64,000 nucleotides of DNA from Heterodontus francisci (Eukaryota): contig NC_090411.1 in the NCBI RefSeq assembly GCF_036365525.1, forward strand, positions 21,343,259 to 21,407,258. Reading direction: 5' to 3'. This document shows, one piece after another, positions 50,101 through 52,405 of this stretch. The position numbers were made by a program, and so were the translations under genes. Under the pieces are notes generated by a model. That model was not told where the DNA came from, did not search any database, and was given only the letters and a program-made list of their open reading frames with translations. Position 1 is the first letter of the stretch; each line of letters opens with the position of its first letter.

Positions 50101-52405
50101 ATTTTACGAAATTGACTTTTTTTGTTTCTGTTTGAACGGTGCTGGTCAATCTGAAACCCCACTACCAGGGCACATTACAGACAGAGATAAATGACGGAGA
50201 TTTTATCATGGAGTTTAACAAAGCTATCTACTTATATCACCCATTGCTAGATCGCTATTCAGAATATGTTCCAATTCAAATGCTGGGACATTCTATAGCT
50301 ATAATGATGTAGAGCAAAGAATTGGGGAAACTGCTTCTGACTAGATTGTTGCTGTGTTATTCTAATACACATATATATCAAACATTTAAGGAATAAATAA
50401 ACAAAAAGTCTGAAATTCAGAAATAAGAGCAGAAAATGCTGAGAGATATGTAGAATAGGAGATCTGCCTGCCTCTATGGGTATTATATAGGATTTCTCTC
50501 TCAGATAGATGCTGAACTGTTACAGATCTCCAACCTTCTTTTTCCTGATTCTGTTGATTTATTTTAGGGTGGGGGGGGGGGGGGGGGGGAACGCTTTGAC
50601 CTTAAAATTGTCCTATGTAAATATTAACACAGGGATATTCATTACATTTCTGTGCAATTCCTTTGTTGTCTTAACTGGAGGTTCCAAGTTGTCGCTATTA
50701 AATAGGTGAAGGACCAGCAAGGCGTATTCTTACATGAGTTGAGAAATGGATATTGGCTCGGCTTCATTTCAAGGTAATGGGATCTGCGATTATTTTCCGA
50801 GTGACTGATCTCCCTGGTACCAAGTTATTTCTCACATTACAACAGTGACTACACTTCAATGGCTGTAAAGTGCTTTGGACCCTGAGGTCGAGAAAAAAAA
50901 TTGCTTTTCTATAGCGCCTTTCAGGACCTCGAAATCTATCAATCTGGGTTTTAATATGAACAATTAATCTCGCATCCATTGCCATTTGTGGAAGAGAGTT
51001 CCAAACTTCTATCACCCTTTGAGTGTAGAGGTGTTTCCTAATTTCATTCCTGAAAGGTCTGGCTCTAATTTTTAGACTATCCCCAGACTCCCCAACCAGT
51101 GAAAATAGTTTCTCTCTATCTACCCTGTTTGTTCTCCTTAATATCTTGAAAACTTCAATCACATCTCCCTGAACCTTCTAAATTCCATGGAATACAATCC
51201 TAGTTTGTATCTCTCTTCGTAATTTAACCCTTGGAGTCCAGGTATCATTCTAATAGATCTACTCCCTCCAAGGATATCCTTCCTAAGATGTGGTGCCCAG
51301 AACTGCTCACAGTAACTCCAGGTGTGATCTAACCAGGGCTTTGTGTAGATGTAGCAAGACTCCTACCCCCTTGTGTATGCGATATAAAGGCCAACATTCC
51401 ACTAGCCTTTTGATTATTTTCTGTACATGTTCCTGACATTTTAATGATCTGTTTACCTGAACCCCCCACCCCCCCGCCCTTCCCCACCAAGTCTCTTTGG
51501 GTCTCCACTGTTTCTAGCTTTTCAGCATTTAGAAACTCCCCTGTTCAGGTGGGAGAGAAGTTGGTTTCTTACCTGTAACTGTCAAGGCAGTTCCTGTCCC
51601 AAACTTCATCTCGCCCTGTTTTCTGACGGCGCAGTAATAGATTCCAGTGTCCCAAACACTGACATTTGCAATCCCGAGTTGAGAGCTGCGGGTGAAGGGG
51701 TCAAATGAGGGAGAAAAGCGAGGCCCGAAACTGTTAAAGTAGCTCACCCGGTTGCCCGAGGCATGATGATATAGCAGTGTAGTTGGTGCTTGTCCGGGAA
51801 GTTGTATAAACCAGTACAGGAGATCTGATCCGTCTTGTATTTCACATATCAGGGTCACCGCTTCTCCCGAATGTGCTATTGTCCATGATGTAGGAGCCAG
51901 GCTGGAATGATCTGTACCGGGAAAGACCGAGTCAAGGGGTTATTGCACCGTTCAGATAGTGCGGATCTGTAATCCGCCATACCGCTCCAGTTTTTGTCTT
52001 TTTTTTTGGTAAATCCACTCAGTCAACCCGTGTCACAACCATTCGTGATATTCACCAGTCTGTCCACTATAATGTTTCTAAAGCACTTCAGTCTCATCAA
52101 TTCTATCAAACATAATGCAGTAACATTATGCAATGTTGTTACAATTATAGAGAAGTGAATAGAGATAGAAAATCAATGGACAGAGTATCATAGATCCACA
52201 GATCTGGACAGGGATCCAGTGGATGTTCAGATTGGGATCCAATGAATGAATAAATAAATACATCGATATTTTCACAAATATATGGGTGCACTGGCTAGAA
52301 AATAAGATGAATCCAAACAGCTAAGCAATTAGATGGCCAGACCGGCAGACAGATAAAGTACTTACAATTCAGCCACATCAATAGGAGCCACGTCAACCTG
52401 TTCAT
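19715..52405 (-). CDS. Whole-gene model: non-rearranging VJ-C1-like IgSF type I membrane receptor with ITIM, join(52405-52366, 51911-51573, 31328-31077, 27847-27740, 26180-26116, 20119-19715)
   Basis: All introns are GT-AG with phases 1,1,1,1,0. Exon lengths 40+339+252+108+65+405 = 1209 nt, or 402 aa plus stop, with no internal stop. The domain order leader-V-C-TM-cytoplasmic is coherent. Confidence 0.82.
19870..20113. repeat. 18-bp coding minisatellite (consensus on + strand CCCGTGGCAACCCCTGCT), about 13 good copies plus degenerate copies
   Basis: Directly visible tandem array. The unit length is divisible by 3 and lacks stops in several frames. Confidence 0.95.
20395..20730 (-). mobile_element. 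Tx1/L1-clade LINE ORF2 3' fragment
   Basis: Minus-strand frames give ...[15 protein letters not shown]...EGLECIVD, resembling the C-terminus of Tx1-like ORF2. Confidence 0.6.
21470..21820 (+). mobile_element. HE1-like V-SINE nested in L2
   Basis: Nearly identical to 18934-19287. Confidence 0.92.
21870..23785 (-). mobile_element. CR1 LINE nested in L2
   Basis: ORFs 22138-22752, 22907-23131, 23140-23418 and 23345-23617 encode consecutive CR1 ORF2 segments ([40 protein letters not shown]). Confidence 0.96.
24325..24585 (+). mobile_element. Short CR1 3' end nested in L2
   Basis: [14 protein letters not shown] sequence, flanked by the direct repeat TCTAAGA (24318-24324 and 24586-24592). Confidence 0.75.
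25390..25955 (+). mobile_element. LINE 3' fragment (CR1/L2 group)
   Basis: [20 protein letters not shown]...[10 protein letters not shown], an RT C-terminal region, followed by an A-rich tail. Confidence 0.85.
26116..26180 (-). CDS. IgSF receptor exon 5: membrane-proximal cytoplasmic exon
   Basis: Acceptor GATATTTTCACAG, donor GTAAGTAC, 65 nt, phase 1 to 0. Reads (V)[21 protein letters not shown] and supplies exactly the phase change needed to reach the last exon. Confidence 0.75.
26640..26820. repeat. Degenerate tandem repeat with TTACAATTGGTTTC core (about 7 copies)
   Basis: Directly visible repeated core with variable spacers. Confidence 0.7.
26876..27671. mobile_element. PIF/Harbinger-type MITE
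   Basis: Ends GGGCTGAAT... / ...ATCCAGCCC with a 3-bp target-site duplication AAT on both sides. It lies about 70 bp downstream of the TM-exon donor. Confidence 0.75.
27740..27847 (-). CDS. IgSF receptor exon 4: transmembrane segment
   Basis: Acceptor TTTCTTCTTTTGCAG, 108 nt, phase 1-1. Reads [35 protein letters not shown]: about 21 uncharged hydrophobic residues followed by CC and basic stop-transfer residues. Donor AAG|GTACCC is weak. Confidence 0.85.
28100..28495 (-). mobile_element. Deu-domain SINE (SacSINE1-like), near full length
   Basis: Same motifs as 403-650, plus head region. Confidence 0.8.
30427..30527. repeat. 31-bp tandem repeat, about 3.25 copies, within a GC-rich MITE-like element (about 30130-30640)
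   Basis: TTAATTGGACAGCA(A/G)GCCCGGCCTCTGGCCA repeated three times. Confidence 0.9.
31077..31328 (-). CDS. IgSF receptor exon 3: divergent constant (C1-like) Ig domain
   Basis: Acceptor TTATTTTATTTTTCAG, donor GTAAGT, 252 nt, phase 1-1, open in the required frame: [84 protein letters not shown]. Cys16, Trp30 and Cys69 show C-domain-like spacing. Confidence 0.75.
31535..32084. mobile_element. GC-rich Harbinger-type MITE
   Basis: Right end AAAATTCCGGCCC resembles the GGGC-type TIRs of other elements here. Internal CCAATTAAGG motifs are shared with the 30130-30640 element. Confidence 0.5.
32085..34290 (+). mobile_element. CR1 LINE, about 2.2 kb of decayed ORF2
   Basis: [13 protein letters not shown] (end of endonuclease), [23 protein letters not shown] and [13 protein letters not shown], with many stops and frameshifts. 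Confidence 0.95.
34520..35190 (-). mobile_element. Old RTE-clade LINE 3' fragment
   Basis: Minus-strand frames give [14 protein letters not shown] and [11 protein letters not shown]...[17 protein letters not shown], typical of the RTE ORF2 C-terminus, heavily disrupted. Confidence 0.65.
36420..36850 (+). mobile_element. Harbinger (HARBI1-like) transposase C-terminal remnant
   Basis: [31 protein letters not shown] and [12 protein letters not shown], followed by an acidic E-run. Confidence 0.8.
37440..37745 (-). mobile_element. Harbinger Myb/SANT-like DNA-binding ORF remnant
   Basis: [12 protein letters not shown]...CRTKFNDLT, convergent with the transposase remnant. Confidence 0.75.
37980..38880 (+). 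mobile_element. CR1 LINE ORF1 end and endonuclease start, decayed
   Basis: [17 protein letters not shown] (esterase-like ORF1 region) and [16 protein letters not shown] endonuclease start. Confidence 0.8.
38883..41300 (+). mobile_element. Decayed Harbinger element with nested SINE and LINE fragments
   Basis: Begins GGGGCCGGATTT. Transposase remnants [19 protein letters not shown] at about 39870-39940. The right boundary is uncertain. Confidence 0.65.
40487..40805 (-). mobile_element. HE1-like V-SINE
   Basis: Reverse-complement copy of 18934-19287. Confidence 0.9.
41400..42270 (-). mobile_element. Harbinger (HARBI1-like) transposase remnant
   Basis: LRKLRVSRQ...[35 protein letters not shown] and [14 protein letters not shown]. 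Confidence 0.85.
43040..45000 (+). mobile_element. CR1 LINE interrupted by a solo LTR
   Basis: ...[14 protein letters not shown] stops at 43567, and the CR1 sequence resumes at 44405 ([11 protein letters not shown]...). Confidence 0.9.
43568..44404 (+). mobile_element. Solo LTR (837 bp) of an LTR retrotransposon or endogenous retrovirus
   Basis: TG...CA ends with inverted termini TGTCACG / CGTAACA, perfect 4-bp target-site duplication GTAG (43564-43567 and 44405-44408), internal AATAAA at 44210-44215. Confidence 0.9.
45995..46415 (+). mobile_element. CR1 LINE 3' end
   Basis: [25 protein letters not shown]...TRGHKY. Confidence 0.88.
47920..48267 (+). mobile_element. CR1 LINE 3' end
   Basis: [14 protein letters not shown]...FKRELD and an ATTCTATGATTCT tail. 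Confidence 0.85.
48972..49846. mobile_element. MITE with perfect 11-bp TIRs, containing a nested Penelope-derived fragment (about 49273-49372)
   Basis: GGGCCAGATTT ... AAATCTGGCCC. Confidence 0.7.
50930..51535 (-). mobile_element. CR1 LINE 3' fragment abutting the V-J exon donor
   Basis: IEVFKILR...REKLF...[11 protein letters not shown]. Confidence 0.88.
51573..51911 (-). CDS. IgSF receptor exon 2: germline-joined V-J (V-set) domain
   Basis: Acceptor TACAG, donor GTAAGA, 339 nt, phase 1-1. Contains B-strand Cys (VTLIC), [19 protein letters not shown] (70 residues between the two Cys) and a J-type G strand [10 protein letters not shown], all in one exon. Confidence 0.95.
52366..52405 (-). 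CDS. IgSF receptor exon 1: signal peptide
   Basis: Strong Kozak GCCAACATG. Reads [13 protein letters not shown] plus 1 nt, then donor GTAAGT. This is a phase-1 split leader typical of Ig/TCR-like genes. Confidence 0.88.

Follow-up and report, generated by a model that had tools for sequence, protein, structure and literature searches.

How does a single exon in a shark genome come to encode a variable (V) domain already joined to its joining (J) segment, and what kind of receptor does it serve? The question is raised by a 64,000-nucleotide stretch of Heterodontus francisci DNA (RefSeq assembly GCF_036365525.1, contig NC_090411.1, positions 21,343,259 to 21,407,258 of the forward strand), which we call the window. 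For positions 51573 to 51911, the original prediction had proposed a germline-joined V-J exon with a T-cell receptor (TCR)-alpha-like junction and without recombination signal sequences (RSS), being either a primordial exon that was never split or a TCR-derived exon rejoined in the germline. We find that this element is exon 2 of an intact, spliced, six-exon gene, here named gene A. In our judgement gene A is probably a single-copy germline VJ gene, conserved in sharks and rays, whose product is likely an invariant inhibitory receptor of the cell surface; it stands head-to-head with a second, predicted gene, and the two as a pair are likely older than the divergence between cartilaginous and bony fishes.

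On the minus strand, 51573-51911 forms a single open exon of 339 nt, the plus strand being closed there, between a CAG acceptor (51914-51912) and a phase-1 GTAAG donor 3' of 51573. Its translation passes from DTGIYYC through nine residues (AVRKQGEMK) into a ten-residue J motif of the FGxG type, and it matches the Pfam V-set family with 56.1 bits (cut-off 26). The motif YxC...FGxGT occurs once in the window and in none of 200 shuffles (2-base words), and searches of PDB sequences returned antibody and TCR V domains only. NFAM1 was considered as an identity and rejected, as its Pfam match is weak and lies under the cut-off, and an immunoreceptor tyrosine-based activation motif is absent; looking for NFAM1 across the genome gave no match, a blank that is uninformative. 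No RSS was found inside the exon, and none with three or fewer mismatches across 49.5-54.5 kb; the closest RSS-like site, at 51375, is intronic and has four mismatches. In the control, all 15 of the closest TCR-delta-type V segments extracted carried a 23-RSS with 0-1 mismatches directly behind the V. The predicted joined exon free of RSS was thus borne out by the RSS scan of exon and flanks and by the single open frame, as was the claim that the window contains no further V exon, since our scan of it found none besides exon 2; a second VJ exon does lie 5.8 kb past the window's right end. Nor was a C1 exon found in the window. With neither RSS by V or J, nor a further V or a C1 in the window, nor a charged residue in the transmembrane segment encoded downstream, we rejected a rearranging TCR or immunoglobulin (Ig) locus.

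The six exons of gene A, read on the minus strand, are as follows.

52366..52608, minus strand: exon 1, 5' untranslated region (UTR) and split leader, ATG at 52405, phase-1 donor (RNA-like contigs X5, X6 and X7)
51573..51911, minus strand: exon 2, germline-joined VJ domain, with the second Cys at 51631-51633, the junction at 51604-51630 and the J motif at 51574-51603 (Pfam, contigs, orthologues)
31077..31328, minus strand: exon 3, second extracellular domain of 83 residues with four conserved Cys, phase 1-1 (contigs)
27740..27847, minus strand: exon 4, membrane segment with no charged residue, then CC (contigs, reading frame)
26116..26180, minus strand: exon 5, first cytoplasmic exon, phase 1-0 (contigs)
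19589..20116, minus strand: exon 6, six-residue repeats rich in Pro, Gln, Arg and Leu, the motif VQYSTL at 19754-19771, stop ending at 19715, and part of the 3' UTR (contigs)

Contig X5, of 1506 nt, spans all six (52366-52577, 51573-51911, 31077-31328, 27740-27847, 26116-26180 and 19589-20116), X6 and X7 cover four exons each, X7 lengthening exon 1 to 52608, and every exon junction is GT-AG. The three contigs come from three runs of one sample; their RNA status was guessed by the tool (they skip introns), and none is recorded as RNA. The resulting frame of 401 residues comprises the split leader, the VJ domain, a four-Cys domain, an uncharged membrane segment and a repeat tail with an inhibitory motif of the immunoreceptor tyrosine-based type (ITIM). 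VQYSTL agrees with the ITIM consensus (S/I/V/L)xYxx(I/V/L) given in the available text of PMC2442602. The product therefore has the frame of a type I membrane protein with a fixed V domain, no charged transmembrane residue and a conserved ITIM consensus.

The domain encoded by exon 3 belongs to no Pfam family, matches neither the C1 profile built here from three seeds nor any other of the sequences compared, and gave unusable AlphaFold models, alone or with five sequences (predicted local distance difference test, pLDDT, about 40). It is possibly a degenerate Ig C domain, with which its Cys-Trp-Cys spacing is compatible. A genome search with exon 3 matched only itself among four candidates. 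The genome search with the V domain gave 147 matches among the best 150 of 819 candidates scored, and the other V domains among these 150 are at most 40% identical to that of gene A. By the best-scoring candidates of both searches, gene A is single-copy in this genome.

Is the joined exon shared with other species? A full HMMER search returned 1097 matches, the best 150 of which include three single-V proteins 60-68% identical to the query. The orthologues come from Hemiscyllium ocellatum (epaulette shark), Mobula birostris, with a cluster member from Mobula hypostoma, and Narcine bancroftii, and all are annotated as 'uncharacterized'. The epaulette shark and the three ray orthologues share the layout of gene A, its nine-residue junction and the motif GEM(K/R)FG, so that the comparison of the segment equivalent to complementarity-determining region 3, proposed with the original prediction and here run across shark and rays, gave an unchanged length and motif. 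The ITIM is kept in three of the four orthologue sequences (P0002, P0003 and P0151), the exon 3 domain is 42-57% conserved among the orthologues, and the number of six-residue tail repeats differs among the species. Exon architecture and orthologues together support the earlier claim that the exon belongs to a receptor other than an Ig or TCR chain; the tail with its inhibitory motif, the neighbouring head-to-head gene and the syntenic setting had escaped the original prediction. Given that these orthologues exist, the empty outcome of word-index protein searches, which returned no new relatives, counts for nothing.

The orthologues also bear on how the exon was joined. The DNA runs containing this stretch all derive from one sample, maybe the source of the assembly, as would suit a window taken from a somatically rearranged lymphocyte allele, the circumstance named as refuting the original prediction. 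We give this practically no credence: four further elasmobranch species have the same junction length and motif, a contig of organism B that runs across the junction shows 4 differences over 173 bases, and the window holds no other V, no C1 exon that we could find and no good RSS near the exon. A recent RAG-made germline joining, as in shark Ig heavy (IgH) and light (IgL) chain genes, is excluded as well. Germline-joined IgH and IgL-lambda genes, of which this genome holds examples, likewise have V and J in one exon without RSS, but they lie within Ig clusters, near rearranging V families, and their identity to gene A is about 40% at most. Exon 2 shows no DNA-level similarity to the V segments compared, and the joining is older than the shark-ray split. 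Both exclusions follow from the junction being kept in the orthologues and from the agreement of the organism B contig.

Sturgeon V-transmembrane proteins come next to the orthologues. They are the next-best matches to the orthologue profile, with 67-69 bits versus at most 62 among the stored proteins and loci (V segments were compared without J, which lowers their scores). With sturgeon protein P0113 as the query, gene A was the first match in the genome (E 2e-12; next match 5e-5), and P0113 groups with the gene A clade in three trees (support 89/92, 96/78 and 96/95). P0113 is likely an orthologue of gene A, as judged from sequence comparison.

The second VJ exon, on the opposite strand, belongs to gene B, which stands head-to-head with gene A, the start codons lying about 17 kb apart. 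Gene B is predicted to comprise a leader, a VJ exon, a stalk with CxxC and a transmembrane segment, and two cytoplasmic exons with the motifs THYASV (resembling a switch motif of the immunoreceptor tyrosine-based type, ITSM) and VYAEV (ITIM). Among the best candidates scored, one copy was found in the genome. Gene B and the other neighbours are located as follows.

L021:5394-6096, L022:7437-7604, L023:~1719-1780 and L023:2628-2744 (G000:C41, right of the window), plus strand: predicted exons of gene B (prediction)
L025:5840-6547 and L026:83-565, minus strand: two near-identical B7/butyrophilin-like V exons adjoining gene B, with a C2-type exon at L025:2733-3095 (sequence)
4184..4307, plus strand: last coding exon of SEPT3, left neighbour and synteny marker outside the receptor (sequence)

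The near-identical B7-like V exons are a recent local duplication. Over 267 of 270 candidate exons scanned, the gene order is CENPM, SEPT3, gene A, gene B, the two B7-like V exons and a GRAM-domain exon, which we take to be part of a WBP2NL-like gene; the order CENPM-SEPT3-WBP2NL is presumably that of human 22q13.2. A gene of the NAGA/GLA family lies on the same contig, 5 Mb off, and the TCR and Ig V segments, like the top C1 matches, are on contigs other than that of gene A. Three side observations concern this neighbourhood. RNA-like contigs of 1.7-2.0 kb at 15001-15483, ending near 15480, are possibly the SEPT3 3' UTR; gene A ends about 4 kb away. An open frame of 593 codons that matches no Pfam family, at L032:1611-3389, lies upstream of the SEPT3 core exons and is perhaps a long exon encoding an N-terminus. 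To the right of the GRAM-domain exon, a stretch of about 130 kb (L133-L145, G000:C41:21.56-21.69 Mb) yielded no candidate exon that was unique once repeats had been masked, which suggests a segmental duplication; the single piece of it tested contained no short tandem repeat.

With the gene and its partner in place, where does the joined exon come from? We computed four V-domain trees (64, 50, 43 and 35 rows, about 98 columns), removing redundant and long-branched rows by hand and assigning the family labels ourselves. In all four free trees the gene A V nests in no TCR or Ig V family. Approximately unbiased (AU) tests rejected none of the constrained placements: the gene A clade with the supporting-V-delta family (p 0.125), gene A with all six TCR alpha/delta rows (p 0.50, cost 0.00 log-likelihood), with gene B (p 0.33), with the VJ-C1 genes of contig C46 (p 0.41), or with gene B and the NITR-type rows (p 0.44, cost 0.15 log-likelihood). 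The phylogenetic check proposed with the original prediction thus gave a divided result: the V domain does not nest inside a TCR V family, but the TCR alpha/delta constraint is not rejected, and the tree signal is too thin to decide between an exon that was never split and one rejoined very long ago from TCR alpha/delta.

In such a rejoining, RAG would very long ago have fused a V and a J of TCR alpha/delta in the germline, and the exon would later have moved here and gained an inhibitory tail, so that the function of the receptor would be the same and its origin different. Apart from exon 2 itself, the V segments of the genome that match it best are of TCR-delta type (34-40%), the look-alikes in the atlas are TCR V clusters, the constraint with the six TCR rows comes at no cost in likelihood, and germline-joined IgH and IgL-lambda genes are present in this genome. 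Against this stand the want of nesting in the four trees, of DNA similarity to the V segments compared and of a C1 domain, as well as the location on a different contig; any rejoining must moreover be older than the divergence of sharks from rays, and probably than that of sharks from sturgeons. We consider this origin unlikely, though a serious contender. The other alternatives concern known families, since joined-VJ receptors as a kind have been described: the available text of PMC11599192 lists CD79, NITR, SIRP, CD8, NKp30 and PRARP. The pair might be a cartilaginous-fish branch of NITR, gene B being a V-only NITR and gene A a diverged relative. As far as the available text of PMC2442602 describes NITR, they share with gene A a V with J motif, an uncharged transmembrane segment, two cytoplasmic exons and an ITIM, gene B being V-only with a two-tyrosine tail, and the exon layout, L-V-(second domain)-TM-C1-C2, agrees. 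The last exon of gene B aligns with an NITR-type tail (E 0.001), and its tail scores 12.7 bits on a profile of five NITR-type tails, the best of 1000 shuffles reaching 10.3; but a gene A orthologue scores 9.4 on the same profile, so that much of this signal is generic ITIM. In one tree, gene B falls inside a clade with eight NITR-type V rows (88/99), a label that is ours, from the V+I layout of fish proteins in a pool selected by gene A, and uniting A, B and NITR in a single clade costs little likelihood. In two other trees, however, gene B stands with TCR-beta, its placement not being rejected (p 0.43), and gene A lies outside the NITR-type clade in all trees that hold NITR-type rows. NITR are also a fast-evolving multigene family, reported in bony fish only, whereas the genes here are single-copy and conserved, without a multigene cluster, and the second domain of gene A has four Cys as against the six of the NITR I domain. 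Membership in NITR thus appears distinctly unlikely.

A further possibility is that genes A and B are orthologous to the PRARP pair of chicken (VJC1 of Xenopus), which would extend a known family to cartilaginous fish. Chicken PRARP, according to Fu et al. 2019, reportedly consists of two VJ genes that do not rearrange and that carry ITIM or ITSM, their products forming disulfide-linked dimers, the second domain being degenerate in birds, and the Xenopus VJC1 genes are said to be those of Ohta et al. 2019. PRARP thus resembles the pair seen here, of non-rearranging VJ-joined genes of the Ig superfamily with ITIM/ITSM tails and a stalk Cys in one chain, gene B being predicted: gene A has its degenerate second domain, gene B its stalk CxxC, and grouping gene A with the VJ-C1 genes of C46 was not rejected. 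Non-avian PRARP orthologues, however, are reported to be V-C1, and the C1 profile found no match in gene A, three orthologues or the gene B region, as against eight C1 exons beside the C46 VJ genes (25-63 bits), which form convergent VJ-C1 pairs beside IgL genes and fit PRARP better. The neighbours also seem to set the pair apart from the major histocompatibility complex (MHC): PRARP lies in the MHC according to the available text of PMC10751288, the present pair between SEPT3 and the WBP2NL-like gene. We regard this orthology as quite improbable.

Two more receptor types were compared and rejected as identities. The elasmobranch genes UrIg and UrIg2 share with gene A a single-exon VJ, a split leader, the absence of rearrangement and the occurrence in sharks and rays (PMC12227049, in the text available). 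According to that text, UrIg is secreted and has three C1 domains, nurse shark UrIg2 has nine, and both locate to the MHC or antigen-receptor complex, whereas gene A is without C1, has an ITIM tail and lies elsewhere. CD8 alpha and beta are likewise two linked germline V genes with stalk and transmembrane segment whose products dimerise; they are arranged in tandem between RMND5A and FOX genes, CD8 alpha carrying a CQH-type Lck motif (PMC10140343, in the text available), whereas the genes here are divergent, carry tyrosine inhibitory motifs and lie beside SEPT3.

Our reading of gene A as a germline VJ gene encoding a likely inhibitory receptor, with gene B as its likely ancient partner, has several observations against it. 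The complete gene A transcripts stem from one sample, possibly the source of the assembly DNA, with RNA status guessed, and gene B is a predicted gene; in the free trees the two genes never form one clade. The Narcine bancroftii model is without the ITIM, for which a gene-model error may account. Sturgeon P0113 has no second domain, has a different tail and is 35-38% identical, and its synteny was not matched; two queries for INO80E, to which the sturgeon gene model is fused, gave no match, a result that is uninformative. The orthology of P0113 remains only likely because the second domain is absent and synteny unmatched.

If gene A indeed acts as an inhibitory receptor, its fixed V domain would bind a ligand, a Src-family kinase would phosphorylate the ITIM tyrosine, and recruitment of SHP-1/SHP-2 or SHIP would damp immune-cell activation, by analogy with NITR, SIRP and PD-1. 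Less supported is a pairing of the gene A V domain, V-to-V, with itself or with the gene B product. It is suggested by the J bulge together with putative V-V interface residues (Gln, Pro, Tyr and the J Phe) that are invariant in eight aligned sequences, at positions which we assigned from antibody structures and presume to hold here. The six-residue repeats may serve as a spacer. An A-B heterodimer is suggested by linkage only, and so, more speculatively, is the notion that the neighbouring B7-like proteins could be the ligand. Taken to its furthest, the proposal would be that genes A and B are a never-split VJ pair from the first jawed vertebrates, outside MHC-related regions, forming an invariant, TCR-shaped inhibitory heterodimer that binds its B7-like neighbours, with gene B as the missing cartilaginous-fish relative of NITR; as a whole, we hold this to be very improbable.

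Several other loci of this genome came to light in the course of the comparisons. The cluster at G000:C46:14.89-15.01 Mb (L166-L179) holds two types of V(J)-C1 gene pair, non-rearranging and mostly convergent, next to the IgL cluster, and its genes, as the better fit, are the best candidates for PRARP/VJC1 in this genome. V segments of TCR-delta type that have an additional Cys in complementarity-determining region 1, and which we take to be supporting-V-delta-like, are present at L002:656-1531 and also in L003, L005, L008, L012 and L080 (G000:C34). Behind them lie tandem units of 62-63 bp with a 23-RSS in every unit; L002 has 14 such units and others have 2-4, and these could be alternative recombination sites for one V. 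L090:4798-7212 (G000:C42, 8.30 Mb) is a V(23-RSS)-J-C1 minicluster whose V falls outside the sampled IgL types and near TCR-beta in some trees. More RSS-less VJ-like exons occur in L097 and L098 (G000:C13, 120.3-120.4 Mb) and in L034 (G000:C34, 0.82 Mb), which, with a downstream C1 exon, is a candidate for UrIg2 by position.

In the literature searched we found no description of the locus, and the orthologue identifiers appear in no paper there; subscription papers, which may name the pair, were outside the scope of the search. The pair thus represents an apparently undescribed, ancient, non-rearranging and likely inhibitory VJ receptor of a generally known kind. Intact single-exon VJ genes are sought as models for the exon that was split by the RAG transposon, as the available text of PMC12227049 sets out, and the earlier VJ candidates, as far as the papers compared present them, map to the MHC or the antigen-receptor complex, whereas gene A lies in a different block. 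Being conserved, apparently expressed, unnamed and located in a separate gene block, with a probable orthologue in sturgeon, gene A adds an independent lineage in which the RAG-split model can be tested. For the biology of sharks, gene A is a candidate inhibitory checkpoint, and gene B offers a lead on the origin of NITR, which PMC2442602, in the text available, calls unresolved.

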